Shown one piece after another: positions 3,085-51,069 of a stretch of DNA of 55,886 bases. The stretch lies in the NCBI GenBank assembly GCA_003552125.1, contig PUON01000057.1, positions 1-55,886 on the forward strand. Reading direction: 5' to 3'. The DNA is from Dehalococcoidia bacterium (GTDB lineage Bacteria > Chloroflexota > Dehalococcoidia > GIF9 > AB-539-J10). Under the pieces are notes generated by a model that saw nothing but the letters and a program-made list of their open reading frames with translations, had not been told where the DNA came from and did not search any database. How positions within the stretch are numbered: position 1 is the stretch's first letter; every line of letters begins with the position of its first letter. The position numbers and the translations under genes were made by a program.

Positions 3085-3161
3085 TGGGGTGAACGGTGGG
3101 ATTTGAACCCACGATCTCCAGGGCCACAACCTGGCGCCTTAACCACTCGGCTACGCTCACC
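3085..3161 (-). tRNA. tRNA-His (GUG), with genome-encoded G-1 and CCA
   Basis: Reverse complement folds as a cloverleaf: acceptor GTGAGCG/CGTTCAC, anticodon arm CCAGG-TTGTGGC-CCTGG, T-loop GTTCAAATC. C73 pairs with G-1 (3161); CCA at 3087-3085. Confidence 0.97.
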
Positions 3162-38218: not shown

Positions 38219-39150
38219 AGATTGCCATTGTTGGAGCCGCAGGAAAGCTGGGAAGCTGGTTCGCTACCTTGCTGCATCAGCATGGTCATGAACTCGTACT
38301 GGTGGGACGTCGACGGGAGCCTCTCGAATTGCTGGCTACACGTATGGATCGTTGCGTGGTGGGACAGCTCGAGGATTTGGCATCCACGGACCTCGTTATT
38401 GTATCGGTTCCCATGGATGTGGTGGAACGTGTCATCGCGGAACTTGGGCTTCATGTCCGTGAATCCCAACCCGTCATAGACCTCAGCTCGCTCAAGCGTG
38501 CGCCTCAGGGTGCGGCAGATGCTCACATGGCACATGCGTGCTTCCTCGGAGTTCATCCCATGTTCGGCTCAGGCGCAGAGAGTCTCTCGGGTCACAACGT
38601 GATCCTTGTCCCGGACAATCCAAGTGCCGAAGCGCTCGCTACCAAGGTGCGCGAGTACGTTGAACCCCTTGGCGCACATGTAGTCTCGATGGACGTTGAG
38701 ACACATGATGATCTGATGTCAGTGGTTCTCGGGTTGCCTGCACTGGTTGTAGCTGCGGTCGCACGTTCAGTGCTGGCTGGTGGCCGGTTCGGAATGGCAC
38801 GAGAGGTAAGCGGCACGTCGCTTGAAGTACTGGCTTCGCTGACAGAAAGCATGCTGTGCGAGGGGAGCGAGCTGTACGGCACGCTCCTGGCAGCATTGCC
38901 GTCCGCCTCTGAGGTCGCCGGCGCCCTGCAGGATAGTGCCGCCCATTTCGCCCGACTGGTTGAGACACGCGATCGAACTGCGCTGATCGAAGAGTTTTCT
39001 TCGCTCGGACGACAACTGGAGCAGGTCGATCACCGTGCGGGCGATGCCTATGCGCGCATGTACGCTATGCTGGAAGCCCTGAAGCGTTATCCGCCTACTC
39101 CAGCGTCCTCTTCAATGGAGGCAGGCCTGCTACCTCCCGCAGACTGTTGA
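38215..39150 (+). CDS. tyrA: Prephenate/arogenate dehydrogenase
   Basis: MKIAIVGAAGKLG, DLSSLK, GVHPMFG, HDDLMSVVLGLP; last gene of the aro operon. Confidence 0.9.
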   Translation: MKIAIVGAAGKLGSWFATLLHQHGHELVLVGRRREPLELLATRMDRCVVGQLEDLASTDLVIVSVPMDVVERVIAELGLHVRESQPVIDLSSLKRAPQGAADAHMAHACFLGVHPMFGSGAESLSGHNVILVPDNPSAEALATKVREYVEPLGAHVVSMDVETHDDLMSVVLGLPALVVAAVARSVLAGGRFGMAREVSGTSLEVLASLTESMLCEGSELYGTLLAALPSASEVAGALQDSAAHFARLVETRDRTALIEEFSSLGRQLEQVDHRAGDAYARMYAMLEALKRYPPTPASSSMEAGLLPPADC

Positions 39151-40279
39151 TCAGGTACACGAAGTTTTCAAACGGCACGTCCGGCGGCACGAAATGGTCG
39201 ACCGACGGGAAGTATCCTCCGGTTTCGAGAAGGTATGGCACCTTTGAGAGTACCTCATTCCGTATTGCACTCTTGTCTTTGAGCAGAGCACGCTTGTCGA
39301 TATTGCCACCCAGTATGACATCCTTTCCGTACTTCTTGCGCAATTCCACTGCGTCATTACCTGCGGCGCACTCGAGCGGCCAGAAGAAATTGATGCCGCT
39401 TTCAAGCCAAAGGGGAATGAGCTGATTCAAACCCCCGTCGCTGTCGACGAAGATGATATCGATACCCTTGGAACGCAGCATGTCTGTGATTACCCGATAA
39501 CGTGGCATCATGAACTGCCGAAACATCCTCGGGGATATCAATGGCCCTGACTTGAATGCCATGTCCTCCCAGAACATCGCTCCGTCGGCCCGTATATCCT
39601 GCAGTGCCCGGGTGAGGCAGGAAACCTCCATCTCGCATAGCGTGTCCATCATATCCTCGATGAGTCCCGGGTCGTCATGCAATGCGAACAGGAGCGGCTC
39701 CAGCCCCATCCATTCTCGTAGGAATCCGAAAAAGCTGCCGACATTCAGCAGCAGCGGTTCATCCTTAGCGTTCATCCGCTCAACGTAACTCTGCCAGTCT
39801 GCGGGGAACCGTGCCGGGTCGTTGGGGCTCAGCCTCTTCTTATACTCCTGCCACGTGGCACGGTCTTTCACCGGGTGGTCCAGGTACATCGGCATCTTCT
39901 GGGGGTCTCTCTTATCGATTCTCACCACCTGGCCACCTTCATTTACAAGAGTGATAGTGTGTTCGTCCTCCGAGAGTTTCCTGGTCTCGTAGGTCGGCAG
40001 TATAGGTGGTATGGCATATACGTAAGTTCTATCCAGGACCTGAAGTCGCTTGTCCATGAAGAGTCCGGTTTGAATCTCCCGGAGGACACGTATGTGATCA
40101 AATTCGAAGTAAGCGCGCAAGGAGCGTGAATCACGCAATTCAGCCGGAGCGCCACGATTGACCCAGACCTCCGGTGTTTCCATCCAGAAGTCATTCAACC
40201 ACGGGGCAAGAAGACAGAGATCGCCTGTTCGTTTGAATCTGCATATATCCAGGAACCGTTGTCTGGTGGACTCCGTCAT
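39095..40279 (-). CDS. Uroporphyrinogen decarboxylase-fold protein (MtaA/CmuA-like methyltransferase family)
   Basis: FFGFLREWMGLE, FWEDMAFKSGPLISP, VDSDG, PLECAAG, GNIDK, SVDHFVPPDVP. Confidence 0.85.
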   Translation of the reverse strand: MTESTRQRFLDICRFKRTGDLCLLAPWLNDFWMETPEVWVNRGAPAELRDSRSLRAYFEFDHIRVLREIQTGLFMDKRLQVLDRTYVYAIPPILPTYETRKLSEDEHTITLVNEGGQVVRIDKRDPQKMPMYLDHPVKDRATWQEYKKRLSPNDPARFPADWQSYVERMNAKDEPLLLNVGSFFGFLREWMGLEPLLFALHDDPGLIEDMMDTLCEMEVSCLTRALQDIRADGAMFWEDMAFKSGPLISPRMFRQFMMPRYRVITDMLRSKGIDIIFVDSDGGLNQLIPLWLESGINFFWPLECAAGNDAVELRKKYGKDVILGGNIDKRALLKDKSAIRNEVLSKVPYLLETGGYFPSVDHFVPPDVPFENFVYLINSLREVAGLPPLKRTLE

Positions 40280-40302
40280 CTGGTCTGCTCTCCCGTCTGT
40301 TC

Positions 40303-40941
40303 TTACCGCGCCGCCAGTTTCTCAGCCTCCTGCACTGCCGAGGCACAATCCTCGGCGAAGCCTTCGGCGCCTATCTGATCCGCGTATTCACGCGTAATTG
40401 GCGCGCCCCCTATCATCACCTTCACCCTATCTCTCAGGCCCGCTTTGTCAAGGGCATCGATTACCTCCGGCATGTTCGTCATCGAGATTGTCAACAGCGC
40501 GGACATGCCCAGTATGTCCGGGGAATGCTGTCTCACGGCATCAACGAATGTGGTCGCCGGCACGTCGACCCCAAGGTCCACGACCTCAAATCCACCACAC
40601 TCCAGCATTATGCGCACGATGTTCTTGCCTATATCGTGGAGATCCCCTTCAACCGTTCCAAGTACGATTCTTCCCTTTCTGTGAGTGTCGCCGGCGGCCA
40701 GGTGCGGTTTCAACTCCCCTACACCTCTGTCCATCGCCCTGCACGCTATGAGCACCTCGGGAAGAAAGACCTCACCATCCTTGAACAGATCTCCAAGGTG
40801 CTGGATGCCCGGCACGAGTGCCTCGTCAAGAATGCTCATTGCAGGGACTCCCTCTTGCAGAGCCTGCTTGACCAGTGCGACTGTCTGCTCGTCATCCCCG
40901 TTCTGCACCGAAGTGGCGAGTATTTCGGGATCCCATGCCAT
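40303..40941 (-). CDS. Methyltransferase corrinoid protein (MtbC/MttC-like)
   Basis: Cap domain GEVFLPEV, B12 motif DLHDIGKN, DLGVDVP, SALLT, IGGAP. ATG 40941 after AAGGAGGT. Confidence 0.94.
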   Translation of the reverse strand: MAWDPEILATSVQNGDDEQTVALVKQALQEGVPAMSILDEALVPGIQHLGDLFKDGEVFLPEVLIACRAMDRGVGELKPHLAAGDTHRKGRIVLGTVEGDLHDIGKNIVRIMLECGGFEVVDLGVDVPATTFVDAVRQHSPDILGMSALLTISMTNMPEVIDALDKAGLRDRVKVMIGGAPITREYADQIGAEGFAEDCASAVQEAEKLAAR

Positions 40942-40955
40942 GAGTTGACCTCCTT

Positions 40956-41041
40956 GTGTCGATGCTGTGGCCGTCTGTCGGGACTGGTGCACAGTGTCGA
41001 TTCAACACCTGAATCGCCATTGTATGACAGTGTCGATTGAA
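40956..41041. repeat. Direct repeats in the divergent corrinoid/thiolase promoter region
   Basis: ACAGTGTCGATTCAA (40991-41005) and ACAGTGTCGATTGAA (41027-41041), plus a core GTGTCGAT at 40956-40963. Confidence 0.75.
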
Positions 41042-41148: not shown

Positions 41149-42447
41149 ATGCGAGAAGTCGTTATAGTCAGTGGCTGTCGGACTGCCATAGGTGCATTTG
41201 GTGGGAGCCTCAAGGACGTACCCGCCATCGATCTTGGATCTCTGGTGATGCGCGAAGCGCTACGACGCGCGGGTCTTCGCCCGCGCACGGGGGATTGGTT
41301 CCGGGATGTCAGCCCGGATCGTGTGAAGGACGATGGTGTCATAGATCTGGAACAGCGGTTCTACAAATATGATGAGGGCCTGCGAGAGGTGCAGGTTGAT
41401 GAGGTTGTGATGGGCAACGTGCTCCAGGCCGGCCTTGGACAGAACTCAGCACGTCAGGCATCCATCAGGGCCGGCATACCGAAGGAGACGCCTGCATATA
41501 CCGTCAACAAAGTCTGTGGATCGGGGCTCAAAGCGATCACGGTAGGTGCTCAACCCATTATGCTCGGTGAGGCAGATGTGGTGGTTGCAGGAGGAATGGA
41601 GAGCATGAGCTGTGCTCCATATGGACTTCCGAAGGCGCGCTGGGGGTACCGCATGGATGTCGAGGGAGTCGGAGAGCTTCGGGACCTGATGGTCTTCGAT
41701 GGCCTTTGGGAGATATTCTATGGCTTCCACATGGGTAACACTGCGGAGGAGGTGGCGGCACGTTACGGGATCAGTCGCGAGGATCAGGATGAAGTAGGAG
41801 CGATGAGTCATCAGCGAGCTCGCGCGGCGATTACCGAAGGCCTGTTCAAAGGTGAGATCGTGCCAGTTGAACTGCCCCAGCGCAAGGGTGATCCAATCGT
41901 GTTCGATACTGATGAACGCCCCATGGATACCACCAAGGAAAGGATGGCCAATCTGAAACCGGCGTTTCGTCCGAACGGAACCGTCACTGCGGGCAACTCT
42001 TCCGGCATCAATGATGCAGCTGCGGCTGTGGTCATGATGACCCGTGAGAAGGCAGACGAGCTTGGTCTGAAGCCCATCGTGAGCCTTAAGTCGTTTGGCT
42101 CAGGCGGTGTGGACCCCAAGTACATGGGTATCGGCCCAATCCCCGCAATCCGCAAGGCGCTGGCGCGTGCGGGCCTGAATGTATCCGACCTGGATGTTGT
42201 TGAGTTGAATGAGGCGTTCGCTGCTCAGGCTATCGCCTGCGTGCGCGAGCTTGGCTTCGACTGGGACAAGACGAATCCTCACGGAAGTGGTATCTCTCTG
42301 GGTCACCCGATCGGCTGCACGGGGGCTCGCCAGGTAGTCACGTTGATGCACGACATGATGCATCGTGGATTACGCTACGGACTTGTGAGCATGTGCATCG
42401 GTGGGGGTCAGGGCATGGCGGCGATATTCGAGAGGGCAGCTGACTAG
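41149..42447 (+). CDS. Acetyl-CoA C-acyltransferase (thiolase)
   Basis: RTAIG, VNKVCGSG, NSSGINDAAA, ELNEAFAAQ, SLGHPIG, SMCIGGGQG. Confidence 0.95.
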   Translation: MREVVIVSGCRTAIGAFGGSLKDVPAIDLGSLVMREALRRAGLRPRTGDWFRDVSPDRVKDDGVIDLEQRFYKYDEGLREVQVDEVVMGNVLQAGLGQNSARQASIRAGIPKETPAYTVNKVCGSGLKAITVGAQPIMLGEADVVVAGGMESMSCAPYGLPKARWGYRMDVEGVGELRDLMVFDGLWEIFYGFHMGNTAEEVAARYGISREDQDEVGAMSHQRARAAITEGLFKGEIVPVELPQRKGDPIVFDTDERPMDTTKERMANLKPAFRPNGTVTAGNSSGINDAAAAVVMMTREKADELGLKPIVSLKSFGSGGVDPKYMGIGPIPAIRKALARAGLNVSDLDVVELNEAFAAQAIACVRELGFDWDKTNPHGSGISLGHPIGCTGARQVVTLMHDMMHRGLRYGLVSMCIGGGQGMAAIFERAAD

Positions 42448-42617
42448 CTGCCCTTCTTGGAATAGTCCGGACACCAAGTGGCATGGGGGCGCTCGCGCCG
42501 GTGACAGGCACTGCGCCAGTTCCATTTACAGCTTTCGCATAGAATGACATTGAGACCCAGTGCCCGCCTGAAGCGGATGCGCATGAGATCGAGCCGGCTT
42601 GGTCCTTTGCCTGTCAT
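42444..42617 (-). CDS. 57-aa small protein with C-x2-C-x7-C-x10-C motif
   Basis: MTGKGPSRLDLMRIRFRRALGLNVILCESCKWNWRSACHRRERPHATWCPDYSKKGS. AGGA 6 nt before ATG; begins 59 nt after the rho stop; its TAG overlaps the thiolase TAG. Confidence 0.65.
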   Translation of the reverse strand: MTGKGPSRLDLMRIRFRRALGLNVILCESCKWNWRSACHRRERPHATWCPDYSKKGS

Positions 42618-42676
42618 GGTCTGTCCTGCCCCTTGACACCGGCTACTCCTGGCCGGGCCGTCAGGGTCTCCCGGGA

Positions 42677-43942
42677 TTATATATCCTTGGTGAGGTTGGC
42701 CAGAAACTCGGCATTGTTTCGCGACTTGGCCATGCGTTGCAGCACGCGTTCCGTTGCCTCTCCGAGATTCTGAGTGTCGTCGCTTAGCATGCTCACCATG
42801 CGGCGCAGCAGCCATACCTGTCGCAGGGTCTCAGAATCGAGCAGGAGTTCCTCTCTACGTGTGCCACTGGGGGTGATGTTGATTGCGGGGAACATGCGGC
42901 GCTCAGACATCTTTCTGTCCAGATGCAGTTCCATGTTGCCGGTGCCCTTGAATTCTTCGTATATGAGCTCATCCATTCTGCTACCGGTGTCGACAAGGCA
43001 CGTAGCGATGATAGTGAGGCTGCCGCCCTGATCGGTGTTCCTTGCCGTTCCGAAGAAGCGCTTGGGCGGATGGAGTGCGGCGGAGTCGATGCCACCTGAC
43101 AAGGTGCGGCCGCTTGCGGGCATGGCGAGGTTGTAGGCCCTGGTCAGACGCGTGATGCCGTCGAGCAGTACCACCACGTCTTTGCCAAGCTCGACGAGAC
43201 GCTTGGAGCGCTCCAACGCAAGTTCGGCGACGCGAGTCTGTGTTTCGACAGGTTCGTCGAATGTCGCCGCAATTACCTCAGCATGGACGGACCGTCGTAC
43301 GTCTGTCACCTCTTCCGGGCGCTCGCCGATCAGACAGACGATCAGGTGAACATCAGGATAATTCGTGGCTATGGCGTTTGCGATCTTCTTGAGCAGCACC
43401 GTCTTGCCTGCTTTGGGCGGCGAGACAATCAGGCCGCGCTGCCCGCGGCCAATAGGAGCGATCAGGTCGATAAGCCTTGTGGAGAGTTCATCAGGCATCG
43501 TCTCCAGTGTGAGTCGCTTGTCGGGAAACAGAGGCGTAAGCGAGCCAAATGTCGGACGTTTCTTGGCAGTCTCCGGGTCCAGACCGTTAATGCTTTCTAC
43601 CCGCAGCAGGCCGTAGTACTTCTCTCCCTCCTTCGGAGGGCGCGCCTGACCGCACACGTGATCGCCATCGCGGAGATTGAACCTGCGAATCTGCGAATTG
43701 GATACGTACACATCGCTTGAGCCGCGGAGGAAGCTTTCCTGACGGAGGAAGCCGTAGCCCTCGCCCATTATCTCCAGAATGCCTTCAAGGAACAAATTTC
43801 CCTGCTGCTCTGCCTGAGCCTTCAGTATCTGGTTGATGAGGTCGGCCTTCTTCATGGCCGAGTATCCCGTCATCCCCTGTTCCTTTGCAATCGCCTCTAC
43901 CTCTTCGCGATTCTTGCTCTCCAATAGCGCCATCGTAAGCAT
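42677..43942 (-). CDS. rho: Transcription termination factor Rho
   Basis: [44 protein letters not shown]. Confidence 0.97.
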
Positions 43943-43982: not shown

Positions 43983-44648
43983 CTATGGAAGAATGCCGGC
44001 AGTGCCCATTACCTTGTTCCAGTCGTCGGCGAACCGCTTGATCCCGATTTCCGTCAACGGGTGTGCAACCATCTGTAGCAGAACCCCGTACGGGATAGTT
44101 GCAATGTGAGCGCCAGCCTTTGCGGCCGAGAGACAGTGTGCGGTGTGCCTGATGCTGGCGGCAATTACCTGGGTGGGACGGTTATAGTAGCTCAGGTAGT
44201 TCACGATGTCAACTACGAGTTGCATTCCGTCTTCCCCTATGTCGTCAAGCCGGCCGACAAAAGGACTCACGTAAGCCGCTCCAGCCTCGGAGGCCAGCAT
44301 AGCCTGATTCAGCGAGAAGCAGAGTGTCATGTTGACCCTGATGCCATCCCTCGCTAGAATCGATGTTGCCTTGAGTCCCTGCGGTGTTGCAGGTATCTTG
44401 ACGGCGATGTTCTCCGCCCACGTGATAATCTCACGTGCCTCGGCAACCATTGCGTCGGCATCCAGGCTGAGGACTTCGGTGGACACCGGGCCGGGAACGA
44501 TCGCACAAATCTCCTTCACCAGAGATCTGTAGTCGACTTTTCCTTCCTTTGAGACAAGGCTCGGATTTGTGGTGACACCCGTCACGACTCCCAGTTCGAC
44601 GCCATGGCGGATGTGCTCGAGATTCGCGGTATCAAGAAACAGGCGCAT
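43983..44648 (-). CDS. tal: Transaldolase (TalC/Fsa family)
   Basis: FLDTAN, GVTTNPSL, Schiff-base VKIP. Glu in VSTEV and Phe in SPFVGR indicate transaldolase rather than FSA. Confidence 0.92.
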   Translation of the reverse strand: MRLFLDTANLEHIRHGVELGVVTGVTTNPSLVSKEGKVDYRSLVKEICAIVPGPVSTEVLSLDADAMVAEAREIITWAENIAVKIPATPQGLKATSILARDGIRVNMTLCFSLNQAMLASEAGAAYVSPFVGRLDDIGEDGMQLVVDIVNYLSYYNRPTQVIAASIRHTAHCLSAAKAGAHIATIPYGVLLQMVAHPLTEIGIKRFADDWNKVMGTAGILP

Positions 44649-44657
44649 GGCAACCTC

Positions 44658-46271
44658 CTAATTGATCGGCAACGGTGACTGCGTTCCCTCCAGCATTACG
44701 GCATCCGCGGCACTGATTAACGACACGAACAGCGGGTGAGGTTGATCTGGTCGCGACCGGAACTCGGGGTGGAACTGGCATCCAATCATCCAGGCGTGAT
44801 CCCTTAATTCGACTAACACGACCGCTTCATCATCAGCGGACAACCCGGATTGGACCAGTCCTGCATTCCTCAGTTGTGGCCGGTAGTGATTATTCAGTTC
44901 AAATGCGTGGCGGTGACGTTCATAAGTAAGGCCACTTCCATATGCTGCTGCCGCGCGGGTTCCTGCTGTCAGCTTACAGGGCAAAGTGCCACGCCTCAAG
45001 CCGGAGGAATCGCCGTCGACCGTGTGGTCAATAACCGGATGTGGAGTTGAGGGCGCAAACTCCGTTGAGTGTGCGCCTTCCAATCCTGCCACATTTCGGG
45101 CGTACTCAATAACGATAGAGTGCATTCCAGAGTTAATCCCCAGAAGAGGAATACCGTGGGTGCGTGCATATTCTACGGCGATAACAAGGCCCTCAATGCT
45201 CGAATAGTGTGAGCTGCCGGGAATCACAATTCCCTGGACACTTCGCAACGGGGCTGCGTTATTCTCCGCCAGCTCGCGAGAATCCACCCAGTGAAGTACC
45301 GGCTCGCGATCGTGTTTGAGGGCCGCATGTACAATCGCTTCTCTCACGGAGTAGTATGCGTCCCACAGTCTCACGTGTTCTCCGACAACGGCGATGTGAA
45401 TTGGGTCATGCAGTTCTTTGAGGCGGTCAACAAGCGCCTGCCACTGATCGAGATCGGGTGTAGGGTTCGCAAGTCCCAATCTGTTGCAAAGATAGTCTCC
45501 AAGTCCGGCTTCTTCCAGGAGCAATGGTACCTCGTAAATAGTGTTACTCGTCTCCAGTGCGACCACGGCCTCTTTCTCGACATCGCAGAACAGCGATATT
45601 TTGTCCCGTATTGATTCGGATACCGGCAGGTCGCTCCGGCACAATATGACGTCAGGCTGGATACCAATGCGCCGCAGCTCGTTAACACTGTGCTGGGTGG
45701 GTTTGGTCTTGAGCTCCTTGGTTGCGCCAATGTAAGGCAGGAACGTGACGTGGACGTACACCACGTTGTCACGACCTTCCTCGTTGCGCATCTGACGAAT
45801 TGCCTCGAGGAAGGGCTGTCCCTCGATGTCACCTACGGTGCCGCCTACCTCTACAATGGCGATGTCAGCCTCGTTCGCATCGGCCCCACGCCGGATCAGT
45901 CGCTTGATCTCGTCCGTCAACTGGGGAACCACCTGGATCGTCCCCCCGAGGTAGTCTCCCCTCCGTTCCTTTTCCAGCAGGGCGTGGTATACCTGGCCTG
46001 CAGTGACGCTGGAGAACCTCGTGAGTTCCACTCCTACGAATCTCTCGTAATGGCCCAGGTCGAGGTCAGCGGCGGCTCCATCCTTGGTTACGAACAGTTC
46101 GCCATGTTGTGCGGGAGACATGATGCCCGGGTCCGCATTCAGGTATGGATCCAGTTTCTGCGCGCCGACAACGTAGGATCGGCTCTTGAGAATCTGGCCG
46201 AGAGATGCGACAGACACGCCCTTGCCAACCGAACTAAGGACGCCACCTGTGACGAATACGTACTTCGCCAT
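44658..46271 (-). CDS. pyrG: CTP synthase with degenerate glutaminase domain
   Basis: VFVTGGVLSSVGKG, KLDPYLN, DLDLGHYERF, EVGGTVGDIEG, KTKPTQHSV. Glutaminase motif reads GINSG instead of GICLG. Confidence 0.95.
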   Translation of the reverse strand: MAKYVFVTGGVLSSVGKGVSVASLGQILKSRSYVVGAQKLDPYLNADPGIMSPAQHGELFVTKDGAAADLDLGHYERFVGVELTRFSSVTAGQVYHALLEKERRGDYLGGTIQVVPQLTDEIKRLIRRGADANEADIAIVEVGGTVGDIEGQPFLEAIRQMRNEEGRDNVVYVHVTFLPYIGATKELKTKPTQHSVNELRRIGIQPDVILCRSDLPVSESIRDKISLFCDVEKEAVVALETSNTIYEVPLLLEEAGLGDYLCNRLGLANPTPDLDQWQALVDRLKELHDPIHIAVVGEHVRLWDAYYSVREAIVHAALKHDREPVLHWVDSRELAENNAAPLRSVQGIVIPGSSHYSSIEGLVIAVEYARTHGIPLLGINSGMHSIVIEYARNVAGLEGAHSTEFAPSTPHPVIDHTVDGDSSGLRRGTLPCKLTAGTRAAAAYGSGLTYERHRHAFELNNHYRPQLRNAGLVQSGLSADDEAVVLVELRDHAWMIGCQFHPEFRSRPDQPHPLFVSLISAADAVMLEGTQSPLPIN

Positions 46272-46348: not shown

Positions 46349-46378
46349 ATTGTAGGCACCTCTCGACTTGACTGTCAA
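46349..46378 (-). promoter_or_regulatory. sigma70 promoter of pyrG-tal-rho
   Basis: TTGACA (46378-46373), 18 nt, TACAAT (46354-46349). Confidence 0.75.
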
Positions 46379-46468: not shown

Positions 46469-47353
46469 CTATGCGCTTAGCGAGGCACGCTCTGCGGCAA
46501 TCACGGTATGTGCCAGCAGCATCGTCACCGTCATAGGTCCGGCGCCTCCGGGTACTGGTGTAATTGCCTCTGCCTTCAGCTTCACAGCCTCGAAATCGAT
46601 ATCTCCAACCAAGCGGTATCCCTGCTTGGCTGTGGGGTCGTCAATGTAATTCGATCCGAAGTCGATGGCGATCACTCCATCCTTCACCATCTCCGCAGTA
46701 ATGAAACCGGCCTGGTTCACGGAGACCACGAGCAGGTCCGCCTGTCGGGTCATCCCAGCAATGTCGGGGGTATCTGGGTTGCACAGGGTGACGTTTGCAC
46801 CGACATCGTTGCGGGTCAGCAGGGCCGCCATCGGTTTGCCCACGAGGCTGTCCATGTTTACTATGACGGCGTGTTTCCGGCGCAAGTCGTCATGGCCGGT
46901 GCGCTTCAACATCTCCATTATCCCGGAAGGTGTGGCGGGTACAAACGACCGCTGTCCCAGCCACGAGCACCCCACGCTTTGCGGATGGAATCCGTCCACA
47001 TCCTTCTCAGGGGCCACTTCAGCCAGCACAAGCTCCTCATCGATGTGACCTGGAAGCGGAAGCTGCACAAAGACTCCGTGAACGTCTGTCCGTTGCACAA
47101 GGTCGCGCAATCGGCGAAGCAGGTGTTCCTGAGAACAGTCAGCCGGAAGATGTTGCATCTCGGCCCTCAAGCCAACTTCATTGCAGGCCTTCTCCTTGAG
47201 CCGCACGTAACTTGCGGATCCGGGATCGTCGCCGACAAGAACGCCTGCCAGCGTAGGGATGATACCCCGCGGCTCAAGCACCCTTATCCGTTCTGTCAGT
47301 TCCTGGCGAATTTCTGTTGAGAGCTTCCGGCCATCAAGTATCGTTCCAGGCAT
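46469..47353 (-). CDS. folD: FolD paralogue with atypical dinucleotide-binding motif
   Basis: SYVRLK, QLPLP, KDVDGFHP, GDIDF, TPVPGGAGPMTV. GRS motif replaced by NMD. Confidence 0.9.
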   Translation of the reverse strand: MPGTILDGRKLSTEIRQELTERIRVLEPRGIIPTLAGVLVGDDPGSASYVRLKEKACNEVGLRAEMQHLPADCSQEHLLRRLRDLVQRTDVHGVFVQLPLPGHIDEELVLAEVAPEKDVDGFHPQSVGCSWLGQRSFVPATPSGIMEMLKRTGHDDLRRKHAVIVNMDSLVGKPMAALLTRNDVGANVTLCNPDTPDIAGMTRQADLLVVSVNQAGFITAEMVKDGVIAIDFGSNYIDDPTAKQGYRLVGDIDFEAVKLKAEAITPVPGGAGPMTVTMLLAHTVIAAERASLSA

Positions 47354-47375: not shown

Positions 47376-48251
47376 TTATTGAGAGGACAGCCTCTCAGCG
47401 GCGAGCACCGTGTTGCTGAGCAGTACTGCGGTGGTGACAGGTCCTGTGCCACCGGGAACCGGTGTGATGGCGCCAGCTACCTGTGACACCGGGTCGAAAT
47501 CGACATCGCCCACGAGCCGTGGCTTGTCGCTCTCGGGATCCAGTACCTGGTTCACCCCAACGTCAATTACCACGGCACCGCTGCGAATCATATCCGCAGT
47601 GATGGTCGCCGGGCGTCCCATCGCTGCGACCACAATATCGGCGGTCCTGGTGAACTGAGCCATGTCACGAGTTCCCGTGTGGCACACTGTGACCGTTGCA
47701 TTGGCCCCGGCCTGTTTCTGCATCAATATCCCGGCAAGCGGCTTGCCGACTATGTTGCTGCGACCACATATGACCACATGACGTCCCTCAGGACTGTGAC
47801 CACTGCGCACCAGCAGCTCCTTAACACCATGCGCGGTGGAGGGAAAGAAGGTGTCTTCTCCCAGAAGCAAGCGTCCGGCGCTCACAGGGTTCGTGCCGTC
47901 CACATCCTTCTCGGGCGCTATGGCGCTCTCCGCAGCGAGTGTGTCAAGGTGACGGGGAAGCGGGAGTTGCAGGATGATGCCATGGAACCGGTCGTCCTGA
48001 TTGAGGGAAGACAGCGTCTCCTCGAGTCGATCCTGCGTCACCTCCTCGGGCAGTCTGACCTCTTCGTGATGTATACCAACCGCTTCGCATCCGCGCGCGA
48101 TACCTCTCAGGTACGAGGCCGCAGCGGGGTCATCTCCCACCACGACTGCTGCAAGGCCGGGTTTCACTCCTCCGAGGTTGGCGATCCTGTCCTTCAGTTC
48201 TTCCCGAATCGAGGCTGCGATAGCGCGGCCATCAATTATTTCCGCAGGCAT
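47376..48251 (-). CDS. folD: Methylene-THF dehydrogenase/cyclohydrolase (canonical FolD)
   Basis: QLPLP, KDVDG, GRSNIVGKP, DVGVN, GDVDF, TPVPGGTGPVT. Confidence 0.94.
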   Translation of the reverse strand: MPAEIIDGRAIAASIREELKDRIANLGGVKPGLAAVVVGDDPAAASYLRGIARGCEAVGIHHEEVRLPEEVTQDRLEETLSSLNQDDRFHGIILQLPLPRHLDTLAAESAIAPEKDVDGTNPVSAGRLLLGEDTFFPSTAHGVKELLVRSGHSPEGRHVVICGRSNIVGKPLAGILMQKQAGANATVTVCHTGTRDMAQFTRTADIVVAAMGRPATITADMIRSGAVVIDVGVNQVLDPESDKPRLVGDVDFDPVSQVAGAITPVPGGTGPVTTAVLLSNTVLAAERLSSQ

Positions 48252-48441: not shown

Positions 48442-50412
48442 ATGGCTGCTGACAAAGGGATGATGTCCATGATGGACGAGAAGAGGCTTTTTCCGCCTCC
48501 CAAGGAGTTCAGCGAAAGAGCGCACATCAAGAGCTTTGAGGAGTACCAGAAGATCTATGAACAGTCTCTGGCTGACAATGAGGGATTCTGGGCCGAGCGT
48601 GCCGAACAGATCGATTGGTTCAAGAAATGGGACAAGGTACTCGTAACGGATTTCGCCAACGCCAAGCACGAGTGGTTCGTAGGCGGCAAACTGAATGTGA
48701 CGTACAACTGCATCGATCGGCATCTCACGACCTGGCGAAAGAACAAGGCCGCGCTTATCTGGGAAGGTGAGCCGCTTAACGAGAGCAAGACGTACACCTA
48801 CCAGGAACTCTATTACGAGGTGTGTCGCTTTGCGAACGTACTCAAGAAGAACGGCGTGAAGAAGGGTGACCGAGTTACCCTTTACCTCCCGATGATTCCT
48901 GAACTGGCGATTGCGCTCCTGGCTTGTGCCCGGATCGGCGCGATCCACAGCGTTGTGTTTGGAGGCTTCAGTGCTGAGGCCCTTCGTGATCGGATTCAGG
49001 ACTGCGATTCTGAGACGGTCATCTGCTGCGACGGCTACTACCGCAGTGGCAAGATCGTAGGCAGCAAGGCGAACGCCGACGTGGCCATGGACCAGTGTCC
49101 CGGTGTCAAGCGTGCGTTCGTCGTGAAGCGGGCCGGTGTCGAGGTTCCCATGGTTGAGGGCCGCGACCGCTGGTGGCACGATGAAATGTCTGCTCCCGAT
49201 ATCACCGCTGAATGTGAGCCCGAGTGGATGGATGCAGAGGACCCACTGTTCATTCTCTACACGAGTGGCAGCACCGGCAAGCCCAAGGGCGTGCTGCACA
49301 CCACGGCGGGTTACCTCGTCTACGTAACGCAGACGTTCAAGTGGGTGTTCGACTATCGTGATGAAGATACGTATTGGTGCACCGCTGATATCGGTTGGGT
49401 CACCGGTCACAGCTACATTGTGTACGGACCGCTTTGCTCCGGTGCGACCAGCCTCATGTTCGAGGGCGTGCCTACCTTCCCGAAGCCGGATCGTTTCTGG
49501 CAGATAGTTGAGAAGTACGATGTCAACATCTTCTACACGGCCCCGACCGCGCTGCGTGCCCTGATGCGTGAGGGTGATGAGTGGGTCAACAATCGTGATC
49601 TCTCGTCCCTGCGGTTGTTGGGTTCGGTTGGTGAGCCCATTAATCCTGAGGCCTGGATGTGGTACTACACCGTTATCGGCAAGTCACGATGTCCTATTGT
49701 CGACACCTGGTGGCAGACCGAGACGGGCGGCATCCTCATTACTCCACTGCCCGGCGCGATGTCGCTGAAACCAGGTTCTGCCTCGTTCCCGTTCCCTGGA
49801 GTCGAACTGGCGATTCTGCGTGAGGATGGCAGCGAGGTTGAGACGAATGAGGGTGGATACCTTGTGATCAAGCGTCCATGGCCTGGCCTGATGCGCACAG
49901 TCTACGGCGATCCCAACCGGTTCAAAGAGACCTACTTCGTTCAGTTCCCCGGCGTGTACACAACGGGTGATGGGGCCCGCCGCGATGACGATGGCTTCTA
50001 CTGGCTGATGGGCCGGATCGATGACGTCATCAACGTGTCCGGTCATCGCATCGGGTCTGCCGAAGTTGAGAGCGCCCTGGTCTCTCATCCGAAGGTTGCT
50101 GAGGCCGCCGTGGTCGGCATGCCCCACGAGATTAAGGGGCAGGGCATCTATGCGTACGTGACCCTGAACGCGGGTGAGGAGAAGTCCGACGAGCTGAAGA
50201 AGGAACTTGTGACCCATGTACGCAAGGAAATCGGTCCCATCGCGGCTCCGGATGTTATTCAGTTCGCTGACGGGTTGCCGAAGACCCGCAGCGGCAAGAT
50301 CATGCGTCGGGTACTGGTGAAGATCGCTGCCGGCGACATCAAGGAGCTTGGCGACACGAGCACCCTTGCCGACCCGTCCGTTGTAGATGATCTCGTGCAG
50401 GGCAGGAAATAG
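48442..50412 (+). CDS. acs: Acetate--CoA ligase (AMP-forming)
   Basis: [58 protein letters not shown]. Confidence 0.96.
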
Positions 50413-50499
50413 ACCTAATAGTTGCTGAATCAGGGACGGCGGATGCACGTCAGCATCCGCCGTCTGCGTATCACGTCAATCGTAAGGAGAAGGGTGACT

Positions 50500-51069
50500 A
50501 TGACAGATACCCGGCTTGGTAATCCCGCCGTTGTCGGCTTGGCCGGATTTGGTACGACTACGCTGTTGCTCCAGTTTCACAACTTCGGGCTCTGTGGTAC
50601 GGGAGTCGTACTATGGACCGCACTCTTCTTCGGCGGACTTGCTCAGTTAGTTGCCGGACTGAAAGAGTATGGCAGCGGGAACAATTTCGGATTTGCAGCG
50701 TTCACGACGTATGGTGCATTCTGGATGGCGCTGGCGGGTATCTGGGCGGGCATGCACTACGGACTTTTCACACCGAGCACGACCGACATCGGCTGGTTCC
50801 TGGTGGCATTTACCGTTCCCACGGTCGTTTACACGCTCGGCGCACTGCGTGCCAGTTGGGCTCATTCGTTCTTGTTCGTGACACTGCTGCTGGGTTTTCT
50901 TCTGCTGGACGGGAGCTTCCTGGGTGGCGGTCAGGTGTGGCTCACGATGGGGGCGGTTGTACTCACTATCACTGCACTGACCGCGCTCTACATCATGGCC
51001 TCGATAGTGCTGGTTGATTTCGGCTACCGACTGCCACTTGGCACTGCGTGGCTGGCGAAGAAGCGATAG
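50500..51069 (+). CDS. satP: Acetate uptake transporter, SatP/YaaH/GPR1-FUN34 family
   Basis: GNPAVVGLAGF signature, FFGGLAQ, GNNFGFAAFTTYGAFW, six hydrophobic segments, directly after acs. Confidence 0.88.
   Translation: MTDTRLGNPAVVGLAGFGTTTLLLQFHNFGLCGTGVVLWTALFFGGLAQLVAGLKEYGSGNNFGFAAFTTYGAFWMALAGIWAGMHYGLFTPSTTDIGWFLVAFTVPTVVYTLGALRASWAHSFLFVTLLLGFLLLDGSFLGGGQVWLTMGAVVLTITALTALYIMASIVLVDFGYRLPLGTAWLAKKR

Follow-up and report, generated by a model that had tools for sequence, protein, structure and literature searches.

A clade of Dehalococcoidia CTP synthases with a dead glutaminase domain that probably use free ammonia

The subject of this analysis is a pyrG gene on contig PUON01000057.1 of a Dehalococcoidia bacterium (assembly GCA_003552125.1), of which we analyzed a stretch of 55,886 nt (the window; positions are counted from its first letter). 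The coding sequence, delimited by its open reading frame (ORF), hidden Markov model (HMM) matches, and alignment, occupies 44658..46271 on the minus strand and specifies 537 amino acids plus a stop codon; the protein is of a kind that we call dead-type, because its glutaminase domain lacks the catalytic Cys. Nine nucleotides downstream lies tal/fsa (TAL_FSA; 43983..44648, minus strand), and rho is the third gene of the array (42677..43942, minus strand). The same pyrG-tal-rho order is found at all dead-type loci (L001–L008) as well as at canonical loci of Dehalococcoidia and other Chloroflexota, and in a phylogenetic tree the dead-type sequences form a monophyletic clade that is sister to the canonical Dehalococcoidia PyrG clade. 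Because this slot is common to dead-type and canonical loci, the dead-type gene is the positional orthologue of canonical pyrG, in agreement with the original prediction, which was made from the letters of the window and had placed the gene in its usual position. The promoter that it mentioned corresponds to a strong sigma-70-like site, TTGACA-18-TACAAT, some 78 nt upstream of the ATG (46349..46378, minus strand; 11 of 12 positions, a consensus match only). No leader or riboswitch was recognized by Rfam in the vicinity of pyrG.

The encoded protein has both domains of a CTP synthase (CTPS). The synthase (amidoligase) domain comprises residues 1–267 (45471..46271, minus strand; defined by Pfam, a check of individual residues, and omega, the dN/dS ratio), with CTP_synth_N matching residues 3–267 at 392.8 bits. 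The class-I glutamine amidotransferase (GATase)-like domain, which we describe as a pseudo-glutaminase, comprises residues 290–537 (44661..45404, minus strand; Pfam, AlphaFold2, and omega), and PF00117 matches residues 302–519 at 82.1 bits, well over its cut-off of 22.8. Among NCBIfam models, PRK05380 (703.6 bits, cut-off 308) and TIGR00337 (676.6 bits, cut-off 462.75) both recognize the protein, which places it within the CTP synthase equivalog (TIGR00337/NF003792). The GATase score of dead-type proteins is nevertheless low, 60 to 82 bits versus 134 to 137 bits in canonical relatives. An AlphaFold2 model of the window protein, built with 40 sequences, had a mean pLDDT of 75.9, with most of the C-domain at 85 to 95 and the weak parts being interface and tunnel loops of the N-domain, and a Foldseek search with this model returned CTP synthases only (TM 0.84–0.87), CTPS GAT domains included. 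Given the confident C-domain and the restriction of the matches to CTP synthases, the class-I GATase fold is predicted to be retained. We rejected membership in PRK06186, the "CTP synthase C-terminal region-related (seleno)protein" family, because its score, 129 bits, lies below the cut-off of 260 bits.

The usual view of CTP synthase is of a universally conserved enzyme that depends on glutamine and is activated by GTP, and this activation is described as unique among amidotransferases. To read the corresponding motifs in the window protein, we aligned it residue by residue to solved CTP synthases and to 120 homologues; residue roles are given in Escherichia coli numbering and are taken from PMC9138612 and PMC8325340. 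The site of the nucleophile Cys379 is occupied by Asn380 (codon AAC, 45132..45134, minus strand), such that the nucleophile elbow of PF00117 has no Cys and GICLGMQ reads GINSGMH (residues 378–384). The oxyanion (L11) loop PGGFG is replaced by PGSSH (residues 351–355; 45207..45221, minus strand), corresponding to G352S, F353S, and G354H, and the neighbor of the nucleophile, Leu380, has given way to Ser, Thr, and other residues in the clade. VGKY is replaced by VGEH (residues 296–299; 45375..45386, minus strand), with Glu and His in place of Lys and Tyr, and ERHRHRYE reads ERHRHAFE, with Ala456 (44904..44906, minus strand) in place of E. coli Arg470, the equivalent of Drosophila CTPS Arg481. The motifs FHPE (residues 500–503), GKG, KLDPY, DLDLGHYERF, EVGGTVGDIE, and KTKPTQHS are all kept. 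The original prediction had described these same features, and the alignment reproduced them closely: its positions for the Asn codon in GINSGMH (45134-45132) and the Ala codon in ERHRHAFE (44906-44904) are exact, the change of VGKY to VGEH is real, and FHPE and the synthetase motifs, which it had called largely retained, are complete. The replacement of PGGFG by PGSSH also stood, although the approximate range given for it (~45208-45222) is one base off the actual codons (45221-45207). One attribution needs correction, in that two of the four motifs that it had assigned to glutamine binding, VGKY and the Arg of RHRHRYE, are GTP ligands (PMC8325340).

These changes are a property of the whole clade. 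Our dead-type set combines the 26 nearest clusters among the 120 best homologues with eight species-representative genomes (L001–L008, all Dehalococcoidia metagenome-assembled genomes (MAGs)), giving 31 distinct sequences, which we compared with 104 canonical relatives. The Cys is absent from all 26 nearest clusters (70–99% identity, ~537 amino acids), while matches at or below 63% identity (~542 amino acids) are canonical, with GLCLGM(Q/H), PGGFG, VGKY, and RHRHR(F/Y)E; the exceptions are P0086 and P0099, in which the Cys is Gly. Over the full set, Cys379 is missing in 31 of 31 sequences (again 70–99% identity), which answers in the affirmative the question raised with the original prediction of whether relatives share the loss. 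As for the remainder of the triad C379-H515-E517, the His is lost in five of the 31 and the Glu is kept. The nucleophile position is occupied by Asp (17 sequences), Gly (6), Asn (3), Ala (3), Gln (1), or Thr (1), and its codons can be arranged in a chain of single-nucleotide steps, from TGY (Cys, sister clade) through GGC (Gly, basal members) and GAC or GCC to the AAC of the window. Because the residue drifts among clade members, the position appears to have stopped mattering, with no replacement nucleophile selected. By contrast with this drift, G352S, F353S, G354H, and Y298H are fixed in 30 or 31 of the 31 sequences, and K297E/D and R470S/A are near-universal; these six positions are 99 to 100% conserved among the 104 canonical relatives. 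Taking the changed motifs as a whole, the figure is 98 to 100%, and since the substitutions are also common to the 31 clade members, their occurrence lies far beyond chance. Logan contigs from two salt-lake samples (X1 and X2) span the C-domain without indels and carry the Asn380 and PGSSH codons unchanged. The 31 distinct sequences and the agreeing contigs together exclude assembly error, and the earlier contention that no single sequencing error could produce these changes was correct.

The substitutions extend from the glutamine site to the binding site for the allosteric activator. In the cryo-EM structure of the Drosophila enzyme with GTP, the triphosphate is held by Lys306, Tyr307, and Arg376 (E. 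coli K297, Y298, and R356), the guanine by Arg481, Phe373, the wing residue Leu444, and Leu107 (R470, F353, L435, and L109), and the ribose by Arg479 and Phe50 (R468 and M52) (PMC8325340). Arg481, which is the Arg of RHRHRYE, hydrogen-bonds the guanine, and Phe353 stacks on it (PMC8325340). Six of these nine contact residues are replaced in the dead clade: K297 has become Glu or Asp, a reversal of charge, and Y298 has become His; F353 and L435 have become Ser and Asp, respectively; R470 is Ser or Ala; and the residue in place of R356 varies. Further GTP-related changes are T438 to Gly, G357 to Ser, E68 to Ala, and T51 to Ile; mutation of T438 in the Lactococcus lactis enzyme cuts GTP activation about 100-fold (PMC9138612). 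The L13 wing is also altered, with GGTMRLG reading (A/S)SGLR(R/Q)G, and the alignment places a clade-fixed deletion of five residues (canonical LLPEQ) just before it, with its junction at Asp415|His416 (45024..45029, minus strand). We interpret this pattern as loss of the allosteric GTP switch along with the glutaminase. Since VGKY and the Arg of RHRHRYE are GTP ligands, the allosteric site would be gone too, which strengthens the case for an enzyme that uses only ammonia (NH3).

The synthase half presents the opposite picture. The residues K18, K40, D42, D72, E140, G142–E149, K187–Q192, and K223 are kept in 31 of 31 sequences, the window included, leaving the catalytic residues for ATP, UTP, and Mg intact, and the tunnel residues P54 and H57 are likewise kept in all 31. 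At the NH3 gate, position 60, all 31 dead-type sequences have Leu where all 104 canonical ones have Val; the clade-fixed changes of this domain are T51I, V60L, E68A, and H118Q. The N-domain evolves with an omega of 0.01 to 0.05 in the dead clade, and its amino acid identity is 90% within that clade versus 85% in the canonical sister clade. For the C-domain the order is reversed (67% within the dead clade versus 75% in the canonical clade), and dN of the C-domain is 3.5 times that of the N-domain in the dead clade versus 1.7 times in the canonical clade. The C-domain omega, from two pairs with unsaturated dS, is 0.11 to 0.135. The catalytic half is therefore under very strong constraint, as an active enzyme that the cell cannot do without should be. 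Constraint on the dead half is relaxed about two-fold, yet purifying selection persists there, and this half is clearly not decaying; the frame, which the original prediction had called intact, is full length. As a separate observation, His118 (window residue 117, codon 45921-45923, minus strand) is invariant in the 104 canonical sequences and Gln in 31 of 31 dead-type ones, and V47A, A87F, N89S, S92A, and V119L are further synthase-domain changes fixed in the dead clade; all six may co-vary with the loss of the GTP site.

We consider it likely that dead-type PyrG is an NH3-only CTP synthase that works independently of GTP. The original prediction of a glutaminase-dead, probably NH3-only enzyme gains support from the clade-wide loss of the Cys, the locus, the selection on the gene, the intact frame, the promoter-like site, and the exclusion of an assembly artefact. 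In the mechanism that we propose, the N-terminal synthase domain would still phosphorylate UTP with ATP and then aminate it, while the C-terminal class-I amidotransferase domain would be folded but unable to bind or hydrolyze glutamine, because the nucleophile, the oxyanion loop, and Arg470 are all gone. GTP would no longer be bound. With the glutamine and GTP functions lost, free NH3 would have to enter directly, and its likely route is through the former GTP-site cleft and then along the retained tunnel, in which Pro54 and His57 are kept and the gate has changed from Val60 to Leu. Canonical CTPS is established to accept exogenous NH3: E. coli G352P has no glutamine-dependent activity but almost full activity with NH4Cl (PMC9138612), and exogenous NH3 is thought to enter canonical CTPS via the GTP cleft, as GTP inhibits NH3-dependent synthesis (PMC9138612, PMC8325340). 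The dead domain would be kept as the wall and mouth (vestibule) of the NH3 tunnel and as part of the folded, oligomeric enzyme, a role that could account for the purifying selection acting on it. One may speculate that the newly fixed Glu/Asp298, His299, Ser353, Ser354, His355, and His384, in loops that line the cleft, either pack the empty site or form a port for NH4+/NH3. Overall, the sequence changes, their conservation over the clade, the position of the gene, and the pattern of selection are direct observations, and from them we infer NH3-dependent activity, loss of the GTP response, and single-copy status for this clade.

Some observations weigh against this interpretation. The V60L change affects the gate itself, and since E. 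coli V60F blocks the use of exogenous NH3 unless GTP is bound (PMC9138612), the tunnel may work differently here. Clade members also live outside alkaline habitats. Finally, the dead domain is under purifying selection and has gained fixed His and Ser residues, which together might indicate a new function rather than a role as scaffold alone. Re-purposing of the GATase-like domain, whether to bind a new ligand or regulator, to obtain NH3 from a donor other than glutamine, or to serve as a port for NH4+ recruitment and deprotonation at the tunnel mouth, is in our judgment unlikely, although it is the most probable of the alternatives. It would fit the C-domain omega given above and the observation that several replacements are fixed rather than drifting (H299 in 31 of 31 sequences, S353 and S354 in 30 of 31, and H355 in 30 of 31). 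From their alignment positions, these residues would lie in the loops lining the former GTP/glutamine cleft, and candidates for a new site are Glu/Asp298-His299, Ser353-Ser354-His355, His384, and, in most members, His457. What is missing from this picture is a conserved candidate nucleophile, as positions 380 and 381 drift freely; moreover, the triad His is lost in five of the 31 sequences, His457 is absent from the window's own sub-clade, and we recognized no known catalytic motif.

In a second alternative, CTP would be made by a canonical, glutamine-dependent PyrG encoded elsewhere in the genome, and the dead-type protein would be a paralogue that has diverged or a pseudo-enzyme with a regulatory role. 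Such proteins may exist: in a profile search described below, the Cys-less PyrG-like lineages P0195, P0223, and P0241 have altered synthase residues, and they may be true pseudo-enzymes. However, the dead-type gene occupies the ancestral pyrG-tal-rho slot, and its synthase domain is more conserved than that of canonical relatives and keeps every catalytic residue, unlike a redundant copy. In general, the genomes of Dehalococcoidia are of small size, and bacteria rarely carry two pyrG genes. We found no second pyrG within the 55.9-kb window or within 10 kb on either side of the gene in L001–L008. Likewise, no assembly prefix is common to the eight dead-type loci and the 72 canonical loci recovered in a scan seeded with peptide patterns from the query and limited to 80 of 586, which is a weak argument. 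We regard a hidden canonical copy as improbable and conclude that dead-type PyrG is probably the only CTP synthase of its clade.

That the whole protein is catalytically inert, with CTP coming from cytidine salvage, seems to us very improbable. Nothing speaks directly for it, beyond the consideration that uncultured organisms may depend on community metabolites, and the extreme purifying selection on the residues of the ATP, UTP, and Mg sites is hard to explain without catalysis. We reject an origin of the substitutions in sequencing or assembly errors, as well as decay of the gene to a pseudogene, because the features are common to 31 distinct sequences from independent assemblies, the per-run contigs of two samples agree without indels, the reading frame is unbroken, and omega stays far below 1.

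Compared with canonical PyrG (EC 6.3.4.2; TIGR00337, PF06418 plus PF00117; E. coli 1S1M and Thermus thermophilus 1VCO), the window protein has the same two-domain architecture at 44 to 49% identity, the same synthase-site residues, the same tunnel Pro54 and His57, and, within Chloroflexota, the same pyrG-tal-rho slot. It differs in having no Cys, no GG(F)G loop, and no Arg470, in a wing that is shorter by five residues, and in V60L. Its architecture, its synthase site, its HMM score, and its locus thus make the dead type a PyrG, but without a triad Cys, an oxyanion loop, or a GTP site it would fall outside the definition of a glutamine-hydrolyzing, GTP-activated enzyme. Dead glutaminases are known from the laboratory, both in E. 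coli G352P (Weng and Zalkin), at a Gly that is replaced in the dead clade too (by Ser), and in the DON-modified enzyme. The engineered E. coli enzymes carry single mutations, whereas in the dead clade some 20 changes, fixed or drifting, have built up naturally and involve the glutamine and GTP sites as well as the wing and the gate. The best natural analogue is carbamoyl-phosphate synthetase I (CPS I) of terrestrial vertebrates, which keeps its class-I GATase domain without the catalytic Cys and uses free ammonia only (PMC7657897); CPS III of a soda-lake fish moved in the same way. Dead-type PyrG presents the same combination of a GATase fold, predicted here, that is kept, a catalytic Cys that is gone, and a synthetase that is intact. 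Nevertheless, CPS I is another enzyme in another domain of life, where the dead domain has taken on allosteric roles. NAD+ synthetase (NadE) faces the same choice between free and glutamine-derived NH3 for an ATP-dependent amidation, but NH3-dependent NadE has no glutaminase domain, while dead-type PyrG retains it as a pseudo-enzyme module. Similarity to PRK06186 is weak and limited to the C-domain, and that family is stand-alone. In the literature covered, from which subscription journals are mostly absent, we found no report of a PyrG that lacks the Cys in nature.

To look for similar losses elsewhere, we searched 1.84 billion representatives, clustered at 50%, with a profile of the C-domain. 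The search did not enlarge the dead clade (best match 257 bits), because at this level of clustering its members are merged under canonical representatives. Among the 150 best representatives, however, 21 lack the nucleophile Cys, and since they are scattered on the PyrG tree they appear to be independent losses. Three of them, P0185 (L084:8001-9602), P0271 (by annotation the CTP synthase of a Treponema MAG), and P0272, are full length and keep all synthase residues. Within the canonical sister clade, P0099 and P0086 combine Cys379 to Gly (GGT) with T51K and M52I in a GATase domain that is otherwise canonical. P0099 (L081:1011-2639, L082:802-2430, and L083:652-2280) is found at pyrG-tal-rho on nine contigs from several samples. 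The pair represents an independent and apparently recent loss of the nucleophile, and P0099 looks like an early stage of the route taken by the dead clade. A more ambitious proposal, which we put forward tentatively and think rather less probable than not, is that glutamine-independent CTP synthesis is a recurrent natural strategy that has been overlooked. Under this proposal, the former GTP/glutamine cleft of the dead clade would have been rebuilt, with an acidic residue and His299, Ser353-Ser354-His355, and His384, into a permanent NH4+/NH3 port that feeds a re-gated tunnel (V60L) and replaces the GTP-controlled gate found in all characterized CTP synthases. P0099, P0185, and the Treponema MAG protein, among other independent Cys-less PyrGs with an intact synthase, would in that case mark earlier or parallel steps in the same transition.

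The habitat of the window organism is compatible with direct use of NH3. Runs that contain the window sequence are labeled as salt-lake, soda-lake, and alkali-sediment metagenomes. Ammonia has a pKa of about 9.25, and a large fraction is un-ionized NH3 at pH 10. Such a habitat would favor direct use of NH3 and save the ATP of glutamine synthetase, although this argument, like the ATP saving in an ammonium-rich habitat that the original prediction had suggested, is circumstantial. The window's sub-clade is known from such sediment: the relatives closest to the window, L001 and L002, are CSSed11 MAGs that were obtained at Cock Soda Lake from sediment of pH 10 (PMC6146748). Because the clade also has members from groundwater, from Danish samples, and from further sites, the trait is older and broader than life in soda lakes, and the link to habitat stays circumstantial. 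If our interpretation is right, the dead clade is a bacterial counterpart of the shift by which CPS III became CPS I, and it suggests that some anaerobes, here in the sediment of a pH-10 soda lake, bypass both glutamine and the ATP cost of glutamine synthetase in pyrimidine amination. The clade also offers a natural experiment on the roles of the GAT domain and of GTP in the assembly and gating of the NH3 tunnel. Finally, it exposes a problem of annotation: equivalog models label dead-type proteins as "glutamine hydrolyzing CTP synthase", and the scores exceed the cut-off by far.

Several minor observations concern the remainder of the window. In a search of RNA runs for pyrG, the only exact match was a 187-nt contig of an alkali-sediment metatranscriptome (run X8; 46005-46191, in the N-terminal region of pyrG), a hint that is too weak to claim expression and may reflect DNA carry-over. 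Two tandem folD paralogues with 44 to 50% mutual identity (46469-47353 and 47376-48251, both minus strand) are the next genes upstream of pyrG; both copies are also present in the dead-type loci L001, L003, L004, and L007, a single folD is present in L002, and no folD was found adjoining pyrG in the canonical loci L009–L040. At the other end of the array, a 123-amino acid frame (42444..42815) overlaps the end of rho. The only Rfam match in the window is a single tRNA gene (3088-3160, minus strand). A URO-D-like methyltransferase gene adjoins that of a corrinoid (B12-binding) protein (39095-40992, minus strand), and together they look like a methyl-transfer or demethylase module. On the plus strand, an acetyl-CoA synthetase-like gene is followed directly by one for a GPR1/FUN34/YaaH-family membrane protein (48442-51069), which may act in acetate uptake.

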